The notes beneath the pieces are model-generated. The model was given only the letters and a program-made list of their open reading frames with translations, made no database searches and was not told where the DNA came from. A DNA stretch of 64,000 nucleotides from a virus: positions 1 through 64,000 of IMG/VR virus record IMGVR_UViG_3300035688_000002. One strand, 5' to 3'. This document shows, one piece after another, positions 7,402-41,745 of this stretch; positions within the stretch are counted from its first letter, which is position 1; each line of letters starts with the position of its first letter. A program made the translations under genes and the position numbers.

Positions 7402-8222
7402 TTAGCCTCCAATGCCCCACCGATTCCCCACAGTTTCTGTCTGATAGGCTCTATAGTCTCTGGGTGTTCGCCCGTATAAGACACGACACCCGATACGTTA
7501 AACACCTTTGCCCATTCTGGTTCTGCCTTTTCCCTACAAAATCTCTCCCATTCAGTAACCCCATAGCCTGTCTTCCTGAAATCCCCTCGCTCTACATAGT
7601 AACGGAGCTTCCAGAATTTCTTCTCTTTCGAGACTGCATGTCCATAGTGATGGAAAGTCACATCATTAAGATACATACGTGTTGGGCTGAGAGCGTGAGT
7701 CCATTCAGAAACTCCAGGAATTCCTACACGGTTGTGCGTTATGTGTGTCATCCCACCACAAAGCCGCCAGGCTGAAATCTCCCTTGGCCTGCTCCATGCC
7801 CCGCCTGTAATAATATGTTTGTCGTCCCTCCAAAAGTGAATACAATTGTAAGCTAGAGCAAGACAAGTCTGGGGGAGGCTTTTCATATGACTTGAAAGAC
7901 GCTTAATATTTTCTTCTGACCACATCTCATCAGCGTCTTGAAGTACACACCAAGAGTTAATATCTCTTGGCATGAGAGACAGATAAGCTCTTCTCTGAAT
8001 AACCTTATGATCTGTCTGTCCAGCCTCATTCCTAAAAGTCCCGCTAATAACCTGCACTTTGACTCCAATTCTTCTGGCTATCTCTGCCGTTCTGTCTGTA
8101 GATGCACCCCAAGGGGAACCATCCATGACAAAAATACGATCAGCACGGTCATAAACACTCCTAATAGCTGCGTCTATAAAAACTTCCTCATTGTAAGCAA
8201 TCATGCCCACATAAAGTTTCAT
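7398..8222 (-). CDS. glycosyltransferase family 2
   Basis: MIAYNEE, DGS...STDRT, DADE, HHYG. Confidence 0.85.
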   Translation of the reverse strand: MKLYVGMIAYNEEVFIDAAIRSVYDRADRIFVMDGSPWGASTDRTAEIARRIGVKVQVISGTFRNEAGQTDHKVIQRRAYLSLMPRDINSWCVLQDADEMWSEENIKRLSSHMKSLPQTCLALAYNCIHFWRDDKHIITGGAWSRPREISAWRLCGGMTHITHNRVGIPGVSEWTHALSPTRMYLNDVTFHHYGHAVSKEKKFWKLRYYVERGDFRKTGYGVTEWERFCREKAEPEWAKVFNVSGVVSYTGEHPETIEPIRQKLWGIGGALEAK

Positions 8223-10987
8223 CTGTCTGCTTCCAACATCTCTTTTGCCACTTTCAACACCTGCTCTAAGTCCAAATGCGTCATACAGTCAGGAATTCTA
8301 ATATTCTCTTTTGCTCTGTGGGGACCAGAGCCAAGACACGGAGTAAAGAAATCACAATAATTCCTTTTGGGAAAGAGCGAACACTTTCCCTGTATTGGTC
8401 TCATTGACTTAAACATTTTTGAAAAGACACTTCCGTTTCTGTTGCTAAAGAGAGTCAGAACTGGAACATTCAATGCTCCTGCCAGATTAGACAAACCGCT
8501 ATCTGGTGAAACAACTAAGTCTGCTAATGAAACAAGAGCAGCAGCCTGCCGAAAAGTAAAAGAAGTGTCGTCTTCGAATGAGATTACGACACTATGTTGG
8601 TTGGCAAGTTTTATTCCAAGAGACCGAATAGGCTTCCAAACCTTGAGTTTGTTGCTCCCCTTCTCAACTATCAATATCCTCTTTTTCTTCTCCGGCATCT
8701 TCCACAGTCGCTCCGCCCACAATCTCTCTTCGTCCATTACAAAATAATCAGGCTTAAGATTGTCAGAATCTGAATGAATGAGATTGAGATAAATCTTAGT
8801 CCTCGGACTCTTTATCTCCCCGTATTTCTGCATCTCTATCTGTTCTATCCTGAATTCTACATCTGTGATATCAATCGAGTAGGAACAACCCTCAGGAACA
8901 GGATTATCATGAAGATAAATTGCATCTATGTTCGGATTGTTTGTTAAAACACACCGATATCGATCCGGCACTGCGTAAACTACTCTGCATTTCTTACCCA
9001 GAGCTTTTAACTCCCTTGCAATAACAGTCGAAAAGAGAATGTCTCCATAACCACCCATTCCCCTTTTGATTAATACTGTAACACGCCTTTCCTTCTTTAG
9101 AGAGTCTTGGATATCAGAAATAGGCATTCCCCCATGCCACTCAGGGCCTAACTTAGAAAGCTGCTGTCTTTCATGGGGATCAATTCCCCATATCTCACGA
9201 TAGAGTGCCACATTCTTATTCCAATTCTCAATGTGTTTCTTGCCTTCTTCCCGATTCGATTTTACAACTCCACCCAAAGCATGATAGTAAATAGCTCCAT
9301 AATCTTGGACAAACTGCCCCCTCGCAAGTCTTATTCGCAGCGTGTAATCATTGTCTTCGATGTAACGAGGTTTGAAACGCTCATTAAAGAATCCTACTTT
9401 CTCAATACACTCTCTCGAAAAGACCGTACAAGAGTAGGAACCAGCAGGAATATCAGCTATAACTGCTACATCATGAGACTGGGGTTTGGTGCTATTGATA
9501 TCCCAAGGTGCTATCCGCTCCATGGGTGTAGCTGTTATCCCAAAGGCTTTTATCTTCTCGGCAGTTTCCATGAGTCTATTTATCGTATCATATCGGAGAA
9601 CTAGATCATTGTTCAAAAGGACAAGTTTGTCATAGTCTCCCTCCATGAATTTCTTCATAGCTATGTTTTGAGCCTCTGCCACACTGGTTTTCTTTGAGAC
9701 AAAGCTGATTCTCTGTTTTTTAAGCCATTCTTGCGTCCCATCGGTTGACTCATTATCAACAACAAAAATCTCATAGTCATGGAAACTTTGTATCGAGGCC
9801 AAGGCTTTAGAAGTCATCTCTTTGAGATTATAAGTCAACATGGTCATGAGAAGTTTCCTCGGTTTTTTTAAATGACATTCCAAAGTCTCCATAATTTTCT
9901 CTGGAGACAATCGATCGAGACACTTAGCCACTCCTGCCTGCTCCTTCTCCTGATAACTTTTCCCCGGAAGACAATCCACAGTCCACCAACAGGGAGTTTC
10001 CTTCCTTCGCAAGGCACACGGAGCCTGAATGACGAGAGCTTTTTCATAATCTTCCGTGAAAATCTTCCCGTCTGTATTTCCAAAGACACCTATGATTCTC
10101 TTTTTAAGAGCCCCAGCAATGTGGAGGATTGCCGAGTCTACAGAAATTACTACATTACACTGGGAAACTAAGGCTGCCATCTCTCTAAAAGAATAATCAA
10201 ACTTTCCATTTTCTACCTTGTCTAGAATAATAACTCCGAGGCCCTTCTGTTTGATTCTCTCTATCACCTTGGGCATCCCTGGATAAATCTTGCATTTGCC
10301 AACCGAATGCAGACCGACTCCGATAAGTGGCCTGCTAAGTCCTTTTAGAACACTCTTAGCCCACTCCCTTTCTTCGTCACTTATTTCATAGACCGGAATT
10401 CTGTCAATAACAAACAGTCCGAGAGCTTTGAGGAGAATGTCAGAGCGATGCTCATAAGCCTCATTCTGTCCTCGAAGTTGCTTCTCTCTGAATTTGAGTT
10501 CTAGGTCATTGGCATTGATTCTGATGTCGAAGCCAGGAAGTTCAAAGAGTCCTTTTTCTTTGCGAGTGTGAGTAGCATCTACATAGGGATTCCCTCTCCA
10601 TACCGACTCAAATGCTTTCATCACTCCCACCTCAACTGTCACTTTATCTCCGTAAGCATCTTTATACGCCTTTGGGAAAATCGTTGATAAAAGGTGATCG
10701 CCGTATCTGTCCACCAGCCCCACATCTATCAAAACTCTCATGCTTCCTTTAGATGCAGAAATTTCCTGTGTAGCTTTATAAGCGTTCCAGAGCTCAGGAG
10801 AAAGAAAGAACTGACCGAAATCGAGATTGCCTATAATAGCCTCAAACCTTGCCCCTCCAGGAGGAATAACTATGGGCTCCATATTAGAATCATAGAAAAT
10901 CTCCGGAGCCTTTCCTCTATTTACAAACATTCTGCCATGTGGTGTTCTAAACACTGCTCCCTCTGTTTTTCTCAGCGGGTCTTCCAT
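8219..10987 (-). CDS. tri-domain glycosyltransferase GT9-GT2-GT9
   Basis: First GT9 (YGD.L, SVDSAILHIAGAL), central GT2 (TYN, VVDNESTDGT, LNND, EDND), second GT9 (GYGDIL, SPDSGL.NLAGAL.VP). Confidence 0.85.
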   Translation of the reverse strand: MEDPLRKTEGAVFRTPHGRMFVNRGKAPEIFYDSNMEPIVIPPGGARFEAIIGNLDFGQFFLSPELWNAYKATQEISASKGSMRVLIDVGLVDRYGDHLLSTIFPKAYKDAYGDKVTVEVGVMKAFESVWRGNPYVDATHTRKEKGLFELPGFDIRINANDLELKFREKQLRGQNEAYEHRSDILLKALGLFVIDRIPVYEISDEEREWAKSVLKGLSRPLIGVGLHSVGKCKIYPGMPKVIERIKQKGLGVIILDKVENGKFDYSFREMAALVSQCNVVISVDSAILHIAGALKKRIIGVFGNTDGKIFTEDYEKALVIQAPCALRRKETPCWWTVDCLPGKSYQEKEQAGVAKCLDRLSPEKIMETLECHLKKPRKLLMTMLTYNLKEMTSKALASIQSFHDYEIFVVDNESTDGTQEWLKKQRISFVSKKTSVAEAQNIAMKKFMEGDYDKLVLLNNDLVLRYDTINRLMETAEKIKAFGITATPMERIAPWDINSTKPQSHDVAVIADIPAGSYSCTVFSRECIEKVGFFNERFKPRYIEDNDYTLRIRLARGQFVQDYGAIYYHALGGVVKSNREEGKKHIENWNKNVALYREIWGIDPHERQQLSKLGPEWHGGMPISDIQDSLKKERRVTVLIKRGMGGYGDILFSTVIARELKALGKKCRVVYAVPDRYRCVLTNNPNIDAIYLHDNPVPEGCSYSIDITDVEFRIEQIEMQKYGEIKSPRTKIYLNLIHSDSDNLKPDYFVMDEERLWAERLWKMPEKKKRILIVEKGSNKLKVWKPIRSLGIKLANQHSVVISFEDDTSFTFRQAAALVSLADLVVSPDSGLSNLAGALNVPVLTLFSNRNGSVFSKMFKSMRPIQGKCSLFPKRNYCDFFTPCLGSGPHRAKENIRIPDCMTHLDLEQVLKVAKEMLEADR

Positions 10988-32209: not shown

Positions 32210-32413
32210 TCATTTAGGCCATCCTTCATGGGTGGGACAGAGATGCTCCCACTTATCGGTCGCTTCGTCTTTTCTAATTCTCCATCCCCCTTCTTTCGCA
32301 AGACCAATAAAATCCATGAAAGACCCTGCCTCAATGCTTTCAGAACTTGAGCAAAAGTCACAGCAGATTTCCCACTCTCCTCCAGACTCATCTTCACTTA
32401 TCTTCTGAATCAC
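32210..32413 (-). CDS. small Zn-binding hypothetical protein
   Basis: CDFC ... AK..GW ... HLCP. Confidence 0.6.
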   Translation of the reverse strand: MIQKISEDESGGEWEICCDFCSSSESIEAGSFMDFIGLAKEGGWRIRKDEATDKWEHLCPTHEGWPK

Positions 32414-33323
32414 TTACACCCTCCGTCTTTTCAACAGCGGGACGTCCTGCTACCTCTTGCTCTCGATAAGACCTTTTCGTATAGTCAGGCTCACTCTTTT
32501 TCAAATCCTCTGTTGTCATGGTGTCTGCTCTCTTAGCTGCCTGTTTAGCCATTTCACTAGCTGGGGGCAAGACCCACACTGGGCCAATGTTTCTTGAGCG
32601 CTTCCCTGATATTTCAGGAAGAATCAGCTTGATAAAAGCTTTTGGCCCCATCTCTTTAAGTTTCAGACCTATTTCCTCAGCCATGTCGTGATCGACAAAG
32701 AAGTAATAGCGTCCGATTCTGACGTATGCCTTTGAGACTCCCCAGATTGAATTGCCTCCCTGTGAAGCCATGTATTGCATCTCAGAGTCTTCCATGTCTC
32801 TCTGCACTATCTGATATTCGGGTCCCTCTGTCCTGTGGAACATGACCTCCTGAAGATCGACATTTGGTAGTTCAACAAAGCTTCTCAGTTCCTCAGTTGG
32901 AAGCTGTATCTGACCGAGTAGCTCTGCCAGAGCTTCTGGGCTCACATCACCATACTGTGAATTATAGGTAAGAATCATCTCTTTGGCTTGTCTCTCGCCG
33001 TCTGCCTCAATCTCGACATAGGGAAGCTCGTCATTCTCAAGAACCATCTTATCTCTGTTTATCAGAGCTTTGACAGCGAAAATCCTTTGGTGTCCGTCAA
33101 GAATATAATTATGTCCCTTCCAAACAAAGATAGGGGCATTGAATCCGTTTCTCACAATGCTCGCTTTGAGCTTTGAAAGCTGCACTCTGTCCATGGTCTT
33201 TAGGTTTCCCTGAAACCGCTCGAATTCCTCAAGCTTCTTCATTGGAAGATTCCTAACTCGAAGTTGGATTTTTAGCCCAACTAACTCTCCTCCTTCCTGT
33301 TTCTCAATGGCTTCATCATTCAT
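32394..33323 (-). CDS. ParB/Srx-like N-terminal domain protein
   Basis: LK.SI..NGF..PI.V......ILDGHQR, L..NS..G. Confidence 0.8.
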   Translation of the reverse strand: MNDEAIEKQEGGELVGLKIQLRVRNLPMKKLEEFERFQGNLKTMDRVQLSKLKASIVRNGFNAPIFVWKGHNYILDGHQRIFAVKALINRDKMVLENDELPYVEIEADGERQAKEMILTYNSQYGDVSPEALAELLGQIQLPTEELRSFVELPNVDLQEVMFHRTEGPEYQIVQRDMEDSEMQYMASQGGNSIWGVSKAYVRIGRYYFFVDHDMAEEIGLKLKEMGPKAFIKLILPEISGKRSRNIGPVWVLPPASEMAKQAAKRADTMTTEDLKKSEPDYTKRSYREQEVAGRPAVEKTEGVSDSEDK

Positions 33324-36096: not shown

Positions 36097-37377
36097 TCAT
36101 GTCTGTTTCCCTCCCCTCGGAGAATAACAAGAGGGAGTCTTACCATTTGATAGCTTTCTTATGAATTTCTCATTCCTCGGAATGTTCTTTTTGCATTTCG
36201 TATTCGATAAGTCATAGGCACAATAATCACAAATGAGCTCCTCTTCGGGAGGGAGATCAGGATTCCCAAAGATTTCTGCCGATTCATCTATAGGAGCGCC
36301 TTCTATCACACCAATCTCCGCTCCTAAGTAGTCCGCAGCCTGTGGCCATAAATCTTTCTGTGGCTCAGTGCTGGAAATTATTGTGTAGCTGGGTGTTCGG
36401 ACTCCAACTTTTTCATTGAATTCAGCCTCCATACGGGCTTTATCTTCGGCAGGAAGATAGTCTTCGATAGTGATTGGAAGATCACTCCAAGTGACAATTT
36501 CAGGGATCATGAGAATTGAGTCTAAATCAGCATTTCGATGTTTCAACTCAGAAATCCTCTTCTGGGCGCTTTTCACACTGACGTCCAGCCTGGCTTTCAG
36601 GGCTCCATTCGTTGTAAGAACCACAGAGACAAGCCATCCTGCAGTCCCAGTCAAATCATGGATAGTGCCAGCATCTATTCCACTCCAAAACACTCCCATT
36701 TGAACATGAGAATGGCACCAGCCGTGTAAATTCTCAGGGTGAGGATGATGAACGAGAAAATCAGCTAAGGCTTGAAGGTCGAAATCTGCCGAAGCTGGCG
36801 AAACTCTCTGTTTGAGCAGATAGAGCTTCGTAAATCGAAAAACATTGTCAACTTTCTCTACTTCTGCCACAAACTGGATTTCATTCGGGGCTGAGAGCCT
36901 TGAGTAATAGAGTAGCTCTTCGAATATCCTTCGCCCTATGAAAACCTTCCACTTTATTTCTGGGGGAGCTGGTTTTCTAGTCTTATCCTCTGCCTTAGCG
37001 GCTAACTCTCCACCTCTGACGACTTCATGCTTCATACAGGCCGGTGTGTCAGGACTGATAAACTTGCCTGTTGACTTATGAAACATGGGAGATAAGGGAT
37101 TGATGCATTTTACACAATTCTCTGTAGCACTCAAACAGCCATAGCAAGTCAGTCGTCCCTCCCTCTCCTCTACAGAGACTTGAGTCTGAGACGCTCTTTT
37201 GGCGATTACCGAGCCTTTTCTCGCTTCGCAAGCAGGATTCCCTTCCATTCTCATAAATCTGTAATTCTTGCTTAGTCTGTAGTTACAGATGCTGAAATTG
37301 TGTCCTCCCCTGAGCTCTTTGACGAGATCATGACAGTCCCCGCAAACCCAAATCTTCTCGGTTTCTTGCTTTTTCAT
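36097..37377 (-). CDS. JAB/MPN+ metalloprotease (DUB-like) with Cys-rich terminal domains
   Basis: NEI ... GWCHSH.M.VFWS..D = E...HxH-x7-S-x2-D; CxxC clusters at both ends. Confidence 0.88.
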   Translation of the reverse strand: MKKQETEKIWVCGDCHDLVKELRGGHNFSICNYRLSKNYRFMRMEGNPACEARKGSVIAKRASQTQVSVEEREGRLTCYGCLSATENCVKCINPLSPMFHKSTGKFISPDTPACMKHEVVRGGELAAKAEDKTRKPAPPEIKWKVFIGRRIFEELLYYSRLSAPNEIQFVAEVEKVDNVFRFTKLYLLKQRVSPASADFDLQALADFLVHHPHPENLHGWCHSHVQMGVFWSGIDAGTIHDLTGTAGWLVSVVLTTNGALKARLDVSVKSAQKRISELKHRNADLDSILMIPEIVTWSDLPITIEDYLPAEDKARMEAEFNEKVGVRTPSYTIISSTEPQKDLWPQAADYLGAEIGVIEGAPIDESAEIFGNPDLPPEEELICDYCAYDLSNTKCKKNIPRNEKFIRKLSNGKTPSCYSPRGGKQT

Positions 37378-38099
37378 TTTCCCTCCTTACCCTTACCGAC
37401 CCTCAATTTCATTATCGATAAATCTGCCATAGAAACAGCAAGGTCATATACAAATTTCCCATCTTTGAGAAAGCCTCTCACTTGGCGTGCAATGACTGCG
37501 GCTATGGCAAAACCCACATCGATTATAGCTCTCCCAGTACATGGAAGCTTGGCGCTGTCCTTGTCTTCAAAGAGATTTGTTTCATACCACTGATGCTGAA
37601 AGATGTCTTGAATGGGACGGATTGTCAAGATTCTGAACTCTTGGCCTCCCATACGGCCATCAATGAGCAATTCAATCTTCGGATTTGGTTTCACTGCTTC
37701 CCAAACCTGCTGTCTAACTTTCATTGTGTCAACGGCTGTTATCACTATTCCACTCAGTGGATCTGTTGGCTCCCACATTTTCTCTTTCGGCTTTATTGTG
37801 ATGCCTGTAAGTTGCCGAGCAAGAGACGCTAAGGCTTTCACTTTCGATATTCCCACTGCCTTTACAAGATGGAGTTGATTCGGCACATTGTGAACTTCCA
37901 CATTGTCTCCGTCCCAGACAGTTATCTTTGAAAGCCCCAGTTTTGCGAGAGCCACTGTCGTAAAGGAGCCTATTCCACCAGCTCCAATAACATGGACTTC
38001 GCACCGATCATGTTGGTCTGGGTCAAAAAAGTCCAACTGCCTCAAATAAGTGCTTTCCTTGCCTTCATTGTTTTTTGTCTCTTCTCTTGTTTCACTCAT
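37374..38099 (-). CDS. ThiF/MoeB-family E1-like activating enzyme
   Basis: Y.RQ, VIGAGGIGS, D.D.VE.HN...Q, K, AVD....R, DGRM, PCT (candidate catalytic Cys). Confidence 0.92.
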   Translation of the reverse strand: MSETREETKNNEGKESTYLRQLDFFDPDQHDRCEVHVIGAGGIGSFTTVALAKLGLSKITVWDGDNVEVHNVPNQLHLVKAVGISKVKALASLARQLTGITIKPKEKMWEPTDPLSGIVITAVDTMKVRQQVWEAVKPNPKIELLIDGRMGGQEFRILTIRPIQDIFQHQWYETNLFEDKDSAKLPCTGRAIIDVGFAIAAVIARQVRGFLKDGKFVYDLAVSMADLSIMKLRVGKGKEGK

Positions 38100-38311
38100 T
38101 TCTCTCCCTTTAACATCCGATTTATAATTTCTAAGCGACTCGCACCAAATTTTTCATACATCTCAAACTGAGCTATTATGTTTCTTAGTTCCTCTATCTG
38201 CTTGAGTATGCGCTCTCTATCTCTTTCAAATGCAACCTTTAGAGTTTTTAGAGTGGGTAGGTCAAACGAGCGATAAACTTCCTCCAGCCCCTTGTCTTTC
38301 TGATTAGCCAT
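38096..38311 (-). CDS. small coiled-coil protein inside the Ubl cassette
   Basis: Overlaps both neighbours; heptad pattern. Confidence 0.65.
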   Translation of the reverse strand: MANQKDKGLEEVYRSFDLPTLKTLKVAFERDRERILKQIEELRNIIAQFEMYEKFGASRLEIINRMLKGEK

Positions 38312-39749
38312 TGTTTCTCTCCCTCGGAGCCCTCTCGCCCTTAGGGTGGACGTAAGTTGTCATGCTCCGATGCACATTGCGAAACAGGGACTCTATCTCA
38401 GTGAATTTATCATGAGGATTGTATGAACAAATAAAATTCCAGATAAGATGGGCTAAAAGCGCCCAATTCCATTCGACAAAGAGCTTCTCAATTCCAGGTC
38501 TAAGAGTCCCCCAACAAATAGTCTGTCCATCTCTGCCACTCACATGGGGATGCTGTCTCTCTGAGCCTAGCCCAAAATCAAGATTGATGATTTTAACTTG
38601 CCCTCTCTCCACTCCTATATTGAGCCAAACCCTGTATTTCCCTAGGTTCCAGAGCTTTCTGTCATAATCTACAACTGCGTCAACAGTGTCATAAACGAGC
38701 CAAGAATCAGTCATCGTCAGTGCTGTGATGAAGGGAAATCCTCGGATTGTGTCTATTTGTTCCTGGAGTTGCTGACCCAGTTTGTTACGTCTTTCAGCAA
38801 CAGAAACATCGAGCAGCTTGGATGTCGCTACGAGCTTCGCTTCAACCTCTATGAGGGAGTTTATGTATTCATCAAGACGATCAGCTATGGTTTCCTTGGG
38901 CGGAGCAAAAAATGCATTTATTTTCTCTTCAAAGACTGTATTAAACTGTGCTGGGTCTCCACCAAATAATCTTGCATAGACACGAAAGAGACGAAACCTC
39001 GATTTCCTGCTCTGATCAGTTTCAAACTCTGCTTTTAACTCAGGAAGCCTTTTTAAGAGCAATTTCTCTACCTGATACACTCCGGCTGCCTTTCTTATCG
39101 CCTCCGTCAAGTCTCTATGACGGACGCTCAATTCATTGAGTGTATTTTGAACCTGTAAGTTTATCTGGCCCGTTCTTGTCATAAGTAGCGTGAGCATTTT
39201 ATCCGTAATTTCATCTCGAATCTGTATCTGTTGCAACTTCTGTCTGACTTCTGCCTCAGTCTTTTTAGCTGCCACCGTCCCTCTTGAGCCCATCCTTTTC
39301 ATTGTCTCCGTCTCAATCATTATCTCTCCCTGGTCACTGATTCCTATGTCACCTCCAGCAGAGGCAGACGGACGGCGGGACACCCTGCCTCTGATTCTGT
39401 TTAAAGCAACTCTCATTTCACTTCGAGTTCTCGCATTGTGTGCCTCATCAGGGACTGCAACTCTGTCTCTCCAAGGGGCAGGCACGGAATCAATCAAGGG
39501 AGGCCCTGGAACCTGCTCATCTGGCAATTCAGGGGATACTTCTTCGCCTCTCCTACGCACAATCCCGCTGACACCTGCTATCCTGGCCTGGTTTAAGAAT
39601 CTCTCTTCGTCTTCGCGAGCAACAAAAATTGCATCTGCCTCTTGGGCTGGTGCGACAAGGAGGTTCCCATAGTGCATGATGCTCCTTAGGAACTGATCGC
39701 GGGTGCCTTCGATTATCTCGTAGATGACCCAACCAGGGCGTGCAGACAT
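38304..39749 (-). CDS. coiled-coil protein with C-terminal prokaryotic E2-like domain
   Basis: HPHV......ICWG followed by amphipathic helices and YN; matches the E2 HPN/H-x-C signature; position between Ubl and E1. Confidence 0.75.
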   Translation of the reverse strand: MSARPGWVIYEIIEGTRDQFLRSIMHYGNLLVAPAQEADAIFVAREDEERFLNQARIAGVSGIVRRRGEEVSPELPDEQVPGPPLIDSVPAPWRDRVAVPDEAHNARTRSEMRVALNRIRGRVSRRPSASAGGDIGISDQGEIMIETETMKRMGSRGTVAAKKTEAEVRQKLQQIQIRDEITDKMLTLLMTRTGQINLQVQNTLNELSVRHRDLTEAIRKAAGVYQVEKLLLKRLPELKAEFETDQSRKSRFRLFRVYARLFGGDPAQFNTVFEEKINAFFAPPKETIADRLDEYINSLIEVEAKLVATSKLLDVSVAERRNKLGQQLQEQIDTIRGFPFITALTMTDSWLVYDTVDAVVDYDRKLWNLGKYRVWLNIGVERGQVKIINLDFGLGSERQHPHVSGRDGQTICWGTLRPGIEKLFVEWNWALLAHLIWNFICSYNPHDKFTEIESLFRNVHRSMTTYVHPKGERAPRERNNG

Positions 39750-39764
39750 TCTCTACCTCTCACC

Positions 39765-40094
39765 TTAGATACCGGCCGAGAAACGCTTGATGGCCACAAC
39801 AGCATCACCGTTGCGGACACGAGTAGCAAGATCGGCTGGCATAGAATTAACGAAATACTGATTCGTAGGGTCTCCTGAGACAGCGCCCCGCTCAATCAAT
39901 TGAGCAAGGGACTGTGTCTCTTCTGGACCCAGTTGAATCCAAGAAGGCGGACGCCCAAACTCCATGATTCTGACTCTGTCACCAGGAACCTGCCTGGCTT
40001 CCTCTTCTGTTTCGACCTCAGCGGGCGGACGGTCTCTGAATCTTTCAATTGCGCCACCCTCTCTCCGTCTCTCTCTTTCTTCTCTTTCATTCAT
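39765..40094 (-). CDS. ubiquitin-like (beta-grasp) protein with a charged N-terminal extension
   Basis: About 70-aa C-terminal domain with ..VN...A.L...V..GD.V.......AG pattern; ends FSAG-I; first gene of the E2/E1/JAB operon. Confidence 0.75.
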   Translation of the reverse strand: MNEREERERRREGGAIERFRDRPPAEVETEEEARQVPGDRVRIMEFGRPPSWIQLGPEETQSLAQLIERGAVSGDPTNQYFVNSMPADLATRVRNGDAVVAIKRFSAGI

Positions 40095-40145: not shown

Positions 40146-40505
40146 CTAATTGGTTCTCCCCTTCCCTGAGTCCAGATTCTTCCAGGCTCTTGCATCTTTC
40201 GCCAGCATCGCCAGGAGTGAACCGGAATCGGTCTCGAAGTGTCTCTCTCCTATTTTCTTTACTGTCTCTGTTATGAGCGCTTCAAAATTTACGAAAGACA
40301 CAGAGAGGAAAATTTCTATCCCTGTCACCATTGCCTCAACGATATTCAAAATTTCCATCTCATTCGTAGGGAGAGGCTCAAAATCCAACTTAGATTTGAG
40401 ATTTGTCATAACCCGACGGTATAAGGCAAGCACATAGATGCCCCTCTCCAACGGGGTAAGGTCTTTTAACTCCATCAAGCTATTCTCCATCATCGACCCA
40501 GACAT
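40146..40505 (-). CDS. hypothetical protein
   Basis: Operon packing. Confidence 0.6.
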   Translation of the reverse strand: MSGSMMENSLMELKDLTPLERGIYVLALYRRVMTNLKSKLDFEPLPTNEMEILNIVEAMVTGIEIFLSVSFVNFEALITETVKKIGERHFETDSGSLLAMLAKDARAWKNLDSGKGRTN

Positions 40506-41058
40506 AGGGCTCAGTTCTATAAGCGTTCCAGATTTTTACGGCTTCTGATATCTCCATCTCTCGTCTCACTATAGTCGAAAAAGCCTTGAAATTCTCTGTA
40601 AGGAAGGCTGCCTGCAATGCGAGAAGTTTGGGATTTCTAATTAGACACCTGAGTGCCATCTCTCCTCCAAACAAAAAGGTCGACTTCCCCCATTTTACTA
40701 CGTTGTATAGCACAACTGGGCACCGTTCACAGCCTCCACCAAAAGTGTGGGTCAAATTACACCATGGATTCAAAGAGGGAATCACAAAAAGCTCCTTTAT
40801 CTGCCAGAGATGTGTGCGTGCAGCCCTGAGTGTGGCAATCCGATATGCACAGGCCCAGCGAATAAGATCGAGCCACACTGTCTTGGTTATCTCAAAATCT
40901 CGATCACAGGGCTTTAAAAACTGTTTCATAAGCATTTCTCTATAAGCCCTAATGAACGATGCCAAGGCAGGCTTGGAATCTACATCCGTGCAGAAAGCGT
41001 CGCTACTAACGAGAACATCGCTCATAGAAAGCTTCAGCTCTTTCTCTCTTTGTTCCAT
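40480..41058 (-). CDS. hypothetical protein with a C...CxxC motif
   Basis: 192-aa ORF. Confidence 0.6.
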   Translation of the reverse strand: MEQREKELKLSMSDVLVSSDAFCTDVDSKPALASFIRAYREMLMKQFLKPCDRDFEITKTVWLDLIRWACAYRIATLRAARTHLWQIKELFVIPSLNPWCNLTHTFGGGCERCPVVLYNVVKWGKSTFLFGGEMALRCLIRNPKLLALQAAFLTENFKAFSTIVRREMEISEAVKIWNAYRTEPYVWVDDGE

Positions 41059-41094: not shown

Positions 41095-41745
41095 TCATTT
41101 TTTCTTGGAGCGTTCGACTTTGATTCTGGGTGAAATGAACCTCATCCCTTCGTATTTCATTATCAGATTGGAAACATCAGACTCTATGTTCCTTCTTTCC
41201 TTCTGCCATGCAGAAATAGGGACAACAAGCACTAATTCCACATACTCTGCTCCTGTCTCTTGTGGCAGTCCCCCTTTCTTGTCAATTAAATCCTCAATAT
41301 CCACAGAGGCTACAGATTCCTGCTGCCATCTCTTAAGGTCTTCGATCTCTTCTGGATTGTATGCAATCACTATCGCCCCGCCTTCCTGTTCCATTTCCTC
41401 AATCCTTTTAATCAAGAGAGCGTAATCCCAAGAAGCGAATTCAGCGATGCGATTGTCAATAATGGCATAGGCAGAGTATTCGCGAGGCTCTATATCAAGA
41501 AGAATTGAGGGAATCTGCTTCTCTCCAAGCCTTTTATAGGCTTCAAGTCTGGCATATCCTGCTACTAAGGTAGAGTCACTCTTCGAGAGCAATACCGGCT
41601 GAGTGAAGCCATAGACTTTGATTGACTCCATCAGCTCCTGAATCTCCCTCTCTGGGTGTAATCTTGGATTCTCAAAGACTTTGATTGATTCAATATCAAT
41701 CAGCTCAACCTTTCTCCCGTGTTGTCTTACTCTCGTTTCATCCAC
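41095..41745 (-). CDS. ParB/Srx-like N-terminal domain protein
   Basis: NPR.H, SI..YGF..P.L, VAG.AR..A...LG, DNR..E.A.WD. Confidence 0.85.
   Translation of the reverse strand: MDETRVRQHGRKVELIDIESIKVFENPRLHPEREIQELMESIKVYGFTQPVLLSKSDSTLVAGYARLEAYKRLGEKQIPSILLDIEPREYSAYAIIDNRIAEFASWDYALLIKRIEEMEQEGGAIVIAYNPEEIEDLKRWQQESVASVDIEDLIDKKGGLPQETGAEYVELVLVVPISAWQKERRNIESDVSNLIMKYEGMRFISPRIKVERSKKK

Follow-up and report, generated by a model that had tools for sequence, protein, structure and literature searches.

A minus-strand gene cassette encoding a ubiquitin-like protein (Ubl) and E2-like, E1-like and JAB-type proteins was analysed in a 64,000-nucleotide stretch of viral DNA (hereafter the window), which covers positions 1 to 64,000 of IMG/VR record IMGVR_UViG_3300035688_000002, a complete virus genome of 100,802 bp with direct terminal repeats. 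Read along the coding strand, the cassette comprises a Ubl of 109 amino acids ending in ...FSAGI, for which a beta-grasp fold is predicted (39765..40094), an E2-like conjugating enzyme of 481 amino acids with a predicted UBC fold, an HPH motif and Cys412 (38304..39749), an open reading frame (ORF) of 71 amino acids specific to the window (38096..38311), an E1-like adenylating enzyme of 241 amino acids with a single ThiF domain (37374..38099) and a JAB/JAMM metallopeptidase of 426 amino acids with the motif E...HxH-x7-S-x2-D (36097..37377). All five ORFs of a preliminary description of this DNA were found on the minus strand with exactly the coordinates given there. The JAB and E1 genes share a 4-nucleotide ATGA overlap, as do the E1 gene and the 71-residue ORF; the latter also overlaps its other neighbour, the E2 gene, by 8 nucleotides, and the E2 and Ubl genes are separated by a 15-nucleotide gap, in the region of which ribosome sites of GGAG/GAGG type were present. 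Motif positions in E2, E1 and JAB were verified by translation. Promoter and terminator scans gave signals at chance level, and the common orientation of the cassette genes carries no weight, because every long ORF of the window lies on the minus strand.

Predicted modifier and enzymes

The Ubl was divided into a disordered N-terminal tail of acidic and basic residues (residues 1-38) and a predicted beta-grasp (residues 40-108, 39771-39977); it ends in Ala-Gly108-Ile109, with the glycine codon at 39771-39773 and the isoleucine cap at 39768-39770. A word-based homolog search with the Ubl returned only itself and the window protein alone gave no profile match; 14 homologs were gathered from syntenic loci and with an alignment query. 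On this 14-sequence alignment, AlphaFold2 (AF2) gave a model with a predicted local distance difference test score (pLDDT) of 93-97 over residues 40-109 and the element order beta-beta-alpha-beta-beta-beta. Top Foldseek matches of the model were ThiS (3cwi, E 1e-3), MoaD, SUMO, Urm1 and SAMP1, with Caldiarchaeum ubiquitin also among the best structural matches, and VIA-align returned Z scores of 8.3, 8.2 and 8.1 to Mth1743 and MoaD. Pfam ThiS was matched by four of the 14 homologs (best 1.1e-4). The family shares a GD-x-V-V-x-V motif and an [AG]G ending, in which glycine is the last residue in 9/14 sequences, is followed by one extra residue in 4/14 (isoleucine in the window) and forms a terminal Gly-Ala in 1/14. 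A small predicted beta-grasp protein with a conserved C-terminal glycine corresponds to the modifier of a ubiquitin-type system.

Since ThiS and MoaD are its best structural and profile matches, the Ubl might alternatively act as a sulfur carrier, thiocarboxylated by the E1 for cofactor, tRNA or DNA modification and never conjugated. The GenBank label 'thiamine biosynthesis protein', carried by E1 relatives in crAss-like Kolpuevirus, Flavobacterium FpV4-type and Xanthomonas jumbo phages, points the same way, and the cassette resembles the ThiS-ThiF and MoaD-MoeB pairs in its Ubl fold with 'GD-x-V-x-V' and terminal glycine and in its single-domain E1 of ~240 amino acids. It differs from these pairs in the linked E2 and JAB genes, in the 38-residue charged tail of the Ubl and in the capped C-terminus; a sulfur relay would need neither a JAB nor a conserved E2 with an invariant cysteine, and the E1 carries no rhodanese domain. 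Searches of the 100.8-kb phage genome for MoaE, ThiG, TtuA-type PP-loop and rhodanese genes (PF05690, PF02391, PF01171, PF00581), for which positive controls were obtained in 11-14 reference genomes, gave 0 matches, with supply by host enzymes a possibility. The argument that the preliminary description drew from the lack of thiamine and molybdopterin genes near the cassette is thereby widened to the whole genome. A sulfur-carrier role of the cassette is unlikely, and very little weight is given to this explanation.

For the E2-like protein a three-part architecture was found, consisting of an N-terminal domain of ~70 amino acids, a long helical or coiled-coil middle part and a C-terminal domain with a predicted UBC fold (~residues 316-462, 38364-38804). 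The latter contains the motif HPHVSGRDGQTICWG at 38508-38552, in which HPH begins at 38550-38552 and Cys412, the predicted catalytic residue, lies at 38514-38516, giving the spacing HPH-x9-C. A word-based search with the E2 returned itself alone, and relatives surfaced only when residues 300-481 were searched exhaustively with phmmer, which gave 149 relatives at E<=1e-3 (cluster representatives of a 50%-identity library). Most of these are 350-500 amino acids long with the domain at the C-terminus, and the full-length relatives keep the plan of N-terminal domain, helical middle and C-terminal domain. The cysteine is invariant (146/146), and the H, P and H residues and the glycine following the cysteine are kept in 137-145/146, so the family consensus reads HPH[VI]-x-G-x2-C-[WLF]-G-N. 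It resembles the eukaryotic E2 signature HPN-I-x3-G-x-IC-L.

An AF2 model of the E2 domain, calculated with the family alignment, reached a pLDDT of 92.3 and showed, in order, a long helix and a beta-meander, then the HPH loop and the cysteine, and finally three helices. All 50 PDB matches listed by Foldseek were UBC E2 enzymes, each of them weak (best UbcH7, 6cp2_B, E 3e-3), and VIA-align gave Z scores of 7.0-7.8 to E2 and RWD chains and of 5.8 to the bacterial BubCD E2. Profile searches gave no E2 match: with the C-terminal domain as sole query, hmmscan returned 0 families at E up to 10, Pfam UQ_con and Prok-E2_A to E included; no E2 family was matched in the 37 E2 relatives scanned; and the family profile found only coiled-coil noise among PDB sequences, so that it is fold and motif, not sequence profiles, that tie the family to E2 enzymes. 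ESM Atlas returned viral hypothetical clusters only, and hhalign of the N-terminal domain against the families of the Ubl and of two proteins of 119 and 192 amino acids encoded upstream revealed no relation. Because none of the four libraries searched (Pfam, NCBIfam, PADLOC and PHROGs) contains a model for this E2 family, its cassettes are missed by all of them. With a modelled UBC fold and a predicted catalytic cysteine ~10 residues past an HPN-type motif, the 481-residue protein reads as a true but divergent E2.

The E1-like enzyme matched Pfam ThiF (1e-14, 54.8 bits, cut-off 28.1) and is the only ThiF gene product of the phage genome. It contains a GxGxxG motif (VIGAGGIGS; G39, G41, G44) at 37965-37991 and, in the crossover loop, Cys187 (37539-37541) within the LPCT motif (LPC(187)TGR). 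Across the E1s of the phage clade, R20-Q21, GxGxxG, D63, K86, D124, R149 and Cys187 are invariant, and the family profile matched TcdA, MccB, Uba5, MoeB, Uba1 and ThiF at 2e-16 to 1e-12, and also PaaA. A ThiF-type domain with an intact nucleotide site was thereby identified, the single exception being the NxxRQ motif (37872-37898), which reads HNVPNQ in the whole phage clade vs NTNRQ in TcdA, so that arginine is replaced by asparagine; crAss-like and FpV4 E1s have glycine at this position. MoeB and further E1-like enzymes all have the NxxRQ arginine, which contacts ATP in MoeB-type enzymes.

In the JAB protein the core (~residues 142-300, 36478-36954) holds E166, H222, H224, S232 and D235, the last four within the motif WCHSHVQMGVFWSGID at 36670-36720, which has the form HxH-x7-S-x2-D. 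Seven aligned JAB homologs all keep E166 and H222-S-H224-x7-S232-x2-D235, as in the zinc site of JAB/JAMM (MPN+) enzymes. The window protein alone stayed below the Pfam Prok-JAB cut-off (14-17 vs 25 bits); the family profile matched Rpn11/PSMD14 (1.7e-7, with the motif aligned), a Caldiarchaeum Rpn11 homolog (2e-6) and then CSN5 and AMSH. Cysteine-rich CxxC...C...C modules flank the core, two on its N-terminal and one on its C-terminal side (36958-37377 and 36100-36240, respectively); their number varies among the homologs, with several at the C-terminus in viral locus L007. Such extra modules could bind foreign partners, as would be expected of a counter-defence device in which the JAB strips host Ubl or CD-NTase conjugates, or in which Ubl, E1 and E2 tag or titrate host defence proteins; Ubl conjugation is indeed part of host immunity (PMC10097602, 10.1101/2023.09.04.556158). 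A deconjugase alone would suffice for stripping, yet every relative keeps E1, E2 and Ubl with intact motifs, and the homologous cassettes of bacteria (see below) are left unexplained, so that counter-defence is regarded as quite improbable.

Taken individually, the four proteins agree with the preliminary description, which had proposed a beta-grasp for the 109-residue ORF, a UBC-type C-terminus for the 481-residue ORF, a ThiF/E1 enzyme with GxGxxG and a PCT cysteine, and a JAB protease with an intact E...HSH...S..D motif. The opposite outcomes for the first two, that no beta-grasp or no UBC fold would be obtained, were checked and did not occur: AF2, Foldseek and VIA-align agree on the former, and in the latter the cysteine follows the HPN-like HPH. 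The Pfam ThiF match, the family profile and the conserved residues support the E1, and the motif invariant in seven homologs and the profile match to Rpn11 support the JAB.

Conservation of the block and its phage carrier

Eight related IMG/VR contigs were retrieved with the E2 alignment. IMG/VR scans with the single window E2 or E1 protein found nothing, and neither blastn with the cassette nor tblastn with the E2 matched any of 50,697 GenBank phage records. The survey of synteny that had been proposed for the cassette showed Ubl-E2-E1-JAB, with order kept, in 8/8 contigs (tblastn E-values of 1e-9 to 1e-84 for the cassette genes), located in each of them between replication and packaging genes. 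As gene set and order are shared by all eight contigs at only 20-55% protein identity, genes and motifs must have been kept by selection. Predicted folds, catalytic motifs, motif conservation and synteny are thus established for the four-part kit. The earlier claim of a full pathway is supported for parts and architecture, Ubl, E2, E1 and JAB each having been confirmed independently; the five-gene composition stands for these four and fails for the 71-residue ORF. No tblastn counterpart of that ORF was detected in the eight viral loci, where E2 adjoins E1 directly, and it is for this reason not a conserved component of the kit; its own family matches all stayed below threshold.

The conserved unit exceeds the cassette as first delimited: a ParB protein, a protein with four cysteines (4-Cys protein) and a small protein join Ubl, E2, E1 and JAB, and most or all of these seven genes were present in 8/8 contigs. 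The first gene of the block (41095..41745, minus strand) encodes a ParB N-terminal-domain protein of 216 amino acids (Pfam ParB_N 1.8e-8, NCBIfam parB_part 2e-8); 7/8 viral loci have a homolog of it upstream of the cassette. Next comes the 4-Cys protein of 192 amino acids (40480..41058, minus strand), found by tblastn in five of the eight loci and represented in the others by an alignable ORF of similar size at the same position. C100, C110, C113 and C138 are invariant in six sequences (pattern C-x9-C-x2-C-x24-C); Pfam and NCBIfam gave no match and ESM Atlas viral hypothetical proteins only. The protein may be a metal-binding adaptor. Between the 4-Cys and Ubl genes a small, probably helical protein of 119 amino acids is encoded (40146..40505, minus strand), for which no Pfam or NCBIfam family was matched; tblastn detected it only in viral locus L006, and equivalently placed ORFs of L004, L007 and L011 align with it at 22-29% identity. 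A homolog of a 232-residue ORF follows downstream of the cassette in 8/8 viral contigs. Elsewhere in the window, a second ParB-like gene (32394-33323, 309 amino acids) gave a weak DGQHR-domain match (E 0.035).

Portal, large terminase (TerL), DNA polymerase, DnaB-like and superfamily (SF)-type helicases and an SbcC-like protein are encoded in the window. Together with the direct terminal repeats of the complete record, the portal, TerL, polymerase and helicase genes confirm that the DNA is that of a phage, as had been assumed from the start. No integrase was found in the phage genome, and the portal shares only ~26% identity with the portals of isolated phages; the carrier is an uncultured, virulent-type tailed phage with a complete genome. 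Among the structural genes of the window, a 922-residue protein (8219-10987) carries a glycosyltransferase domain (PHROG 2456, 3.8e-11).

Relatives in phages and bacteria and comparison with known systems

Adjacent JAB and ThiF/E1 genes, with JAB directly upstream, were found in Kolpuevirus (L001:3367-5666) and in Flavobacterium phage FpV4 (L002:3686-5618). The JAB proteins of these pairs have 423-426 amino acids, are annotated as 'metalloprotease' and are related to the window JAB at 4e-10 and 2.5e-9; the E1s are 26-27% identical to the window E1. Within 5 kb of either pair, family hidden Markov models (HMMs) and motif scans detected neither an E2 nor a Ubl. The pairs share with the window the adjacency of JAB and ThiF genes within the replication module of a lytic phage and differ from it in that the window cassette has E2 and Ubl; they may represent a reduced or more divergent version of the cassette in cultured lytic phages.

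Bacterial loci were found by an E1-alignment scan of species-representative genomes, which yielded 16 close loci. About half of these, including the best E1 matches, belong to metagenome-assembled genomes (MAGs) of Patescibacteria (Saccharibacteria, Parcubacteria, Minisyncoccales), and the cassette also occurs in several other phyla, the remaining loci including NC10, Anaerolineae, Binatia, Gammaproteobacteria and Obscuribacteraceae. By HMM, the same E2 family was present in 15/16 loci, JAB in 11/16 and a detectable Ubl in two; the bacterial gene order is E2-JAB-E1-Ubl, and one bacterial cassette Ubl ends in ...KGGH. The Patescibacteria loci (L013:3965-6912, L016:3189-6642, L015, L020, L027) are flanked by genes for ribosomal proteins L25 and S2, GatA, PheS/PheT, AlaRS, a class I tRNA synthetase and RNase Y. 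The E2/E1 cassette is therefore not confined to phages, homologs being located on bacterial MAG contigs beside housekeeping genes. In an E1 tree, from which three duplicate loci and rows with an envelope <=150 amino acids were excluded, the phage clade formed one supported group (98/98) among the E1s of homologous bacterial cassettes; as rooting was by midpoint only, the direction of transfer cannot be read from this tree.

Several bacterial members of the E2 family have no cysteine or no HPH motif (L028:2723-4699, L014, L015) and, judged by these residues, are probably inactive, RWD-like copies. Such losses, the missing NxxRQ arginine of the E1 and the linkage of the block to ParB would fit a degenerate or non-catalytic set in which the folds are kept as scaffolds, for example with a structural or partitioning task for the coiled-coil E2-like protein in partnership with ParB. 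The E2 cysteine does not vary within the phage clade or among all 146 closest relatives, and neither do the JAMM residues or those of the E1 nucleotide site; such constancy would be difficult to account for in non-catalytic proteins, which makes a purely structural role highly improbable.

The E2 domain was sporadic in Patescibacteria (4/301 genomes sampled from this one phylum), as is typical of accessory or defence genes. This distribution would agree with a defence or superinfection-exclusion module that tags and disables competing phages or other mobile elements, all the more so as the function-tested bacterial Ubl-E1-E2-JAB systems of the literature searched, Bil and Cap2/Cap3 of the cyclic oligonucleotide-based antiphage signalling system (CBASS), are anti-phage (PMC10557695, 10.1101/2023.09.04.556158, PMC10097602), Bil tagging a phage tail fibre. 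In the phages, the fixed position of the block in 8/8 contigs is like that of a core set and not of a variable island; with no integrase, there is no lysogen to protect; and PADLOC models gave no match for Ubl, E2 or JAB, the presence of Bil models in that release not being confirmed. Only the Rossmann segment of the E1 was matched, through Cap2 'E1-E2' models (1e-11 to 1e-8). A defensive function of the phage cassette is thus judged rather unlikely.

Comparison with these two systems showed partial agreement. With Bil (BilABCD) the cassette shares the organization in four separate proteins, a Ubl ending in glycine, an E1, a UBC-type E2 and a JAB deubiquitinase. Its Ubl has a short extension after the terminal glycine, like some BilA homologs, which carry short overhangs at this point (10.1101/2023.09.04.556158). 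BilD combines tandem inactive and active adenylation domains with an inserted, mobile CYS domain (PMC10557695) and BilA has two ubiquitin-like domains (10.1101/2023.09.04.556158), whereas the window E1 is a single domain of 241 amino acids with its cysteine in the crossover loop and the window Ubl has one beta-grasp; Bil is also bacterial and defensive, and the present cassette is carried by a phage. Membership in Bil was rejected because the E1 and Ubl architectures differ. The combination of E1 and E2 chemistry with a reversing JAB is shared with CBASS Cap2/Cap3. Cap2 is an E2-E1 fusion that conjugates the CD-NTase and has no separate Ubl, whereas E1 and E2 are encoded here by separate genes together with a Ubl. 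As no SMODS/CD-NTase gene was found in the complete phage genome and no E1-E2 fusion exists, CBASS was excluded.

The PRTRC (ParB-related, ThiF-related) cassette of NCBIfam is taken by us to be the same as type 6d of an earlier classification of prokaryotic Ubl operons. In that classification E1/E2/JAB/Ubl operons are grouped into types 6a-6e (Iyer, Burroughs and Aravind 2006, PMC1779556), and the closest described kind to the window cassette is the Ubl-E1-E2-JAB operons of Iyer et al. 2006 together with PRTRC. In common with these operons and with type 6d, the cassette has a standalone small Ubl with a C-terminal glycine, a standalone E2-like protein with a conserved cysteine, an E1-like enzyme with no rhodanese domain, an adjacent JAB, extra uncharacterised conserved proteins, a neighbouring ParB gene, a location on mobile DNA and a sporadic distribution. 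The type 6d E2-like protein lacks the classical upstream histidine and uses a downstream one instead (PMC1779556), whereas the present E2 family keeps HPH directly upstream of the cysteine (137-145/146) and so departs from type 6d. Further differences from PRTRC/6d lie in the added N-terminal domain and coiled coil of the window E2, in the order Ubl-E2-E1-JAB and in the carrier, here a lytic-type phage and there a plasmid or integrative and conjugative element. The PRTRC models (NCBIfam TIGR03734-03742) stayed far below their cut-offs (PRTRC_ThiF 40.7 vs 144.75, PRTRC_A 13.3 vs 101.8, PRTRC_parB 22.7 vs 278.6) or, for the Ubl, E2, 192-residue and 119-residue proteins, had no match, and PRTRC membership was rejected on these grounds.

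Predicted pathway and its significance

From these results the phage probably encodes a working Ubl conjugation pathway, transcribed within the block ParB-4-Cys-small protein-Ubl-E2-E1-JAB. In the predicted sequence of events, the JAB would remove the single C-terminal Ile109 of the Ubl and expose Gly108. The E1, probably a ThiF/MoeB-like homodimer, would adenylate Gly108 and, by the chemistry of its family, may keep it bound to Cys187 as a thioester. The Ubl would then pass to Cys412 of the E2 and be transferred to lysines of target proteins, with the N-terminal domain and coiled coil of the E2, perhaps together with the 4-Cys protein, conceivably replacing an E3 in the choice of targets. Finally, the JAB would also take the tag off again. 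On account of the block position, which is conserved in every relative sampled, the role proposed for this pathway is tagging by the phage of its own or host proteins during infection.

Several observations weigh against the proposed pathway. Structural scores of the E2 are moderate (Foldseek E 3e-3, template modelling (TM) score 0.4-0.5, Z <8), and no E2 profile matched its domain (Pfam at E up to 10, PADLOC, NCBIfam). With asparagine in place of the NxxRQ arginine, adenylation by the E1 could be weak or altered; the E1 superfamily, moreover, includes enzymes that do not act on Ubls, of which TcdA, MccB and PaaA are among the best matches of the E1 profile. The JAB cannot serve processing alone, because 9/14 Ubl homologs already end in glycine. 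No E3 was recognisable.

Literature searches of incomplete coverage yielded no description of a complete cassette encoded by a phage, of ThiF in crAss-like phages or of a Ubl system in Patescibacteria, and the viral E1 homologs found in the literature came only from Asgard archaeal viruses. Within the known kind of Ubl-E1-E2-JAB operons, the unannotated E2 family and the phage carrier are new here. An even chance is given to the more specific proposal that a lineage of virulent-type phages runs an E3-independent Ubl pathway during infection, covalently tagging specific phage or host proteins through this E2 family, which it shares with sporadic chromosomal cassettes of Patescibacteria and other bacteria. 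If true, no earlier case of a complete Ubl conjugation system encoded by a prokaryotic virus would exist in the literature searched, and the system would be one that serves the virus instead of acting against it. The homologs in Patescibacteria (candidate phyla radiation), with genomes of ~0.8-1 Mb and housekeeping genes at the flanks of the cassette, offer a second setting in which the role of the tag can be asked. All function-tested bacterial Ubl-E1-E2-JAB systems in the literature searched are anti-phage, and here the kit is a conserved part of a phage genome. This points to a use of protein tagging by both parties to the phage-host conflict.

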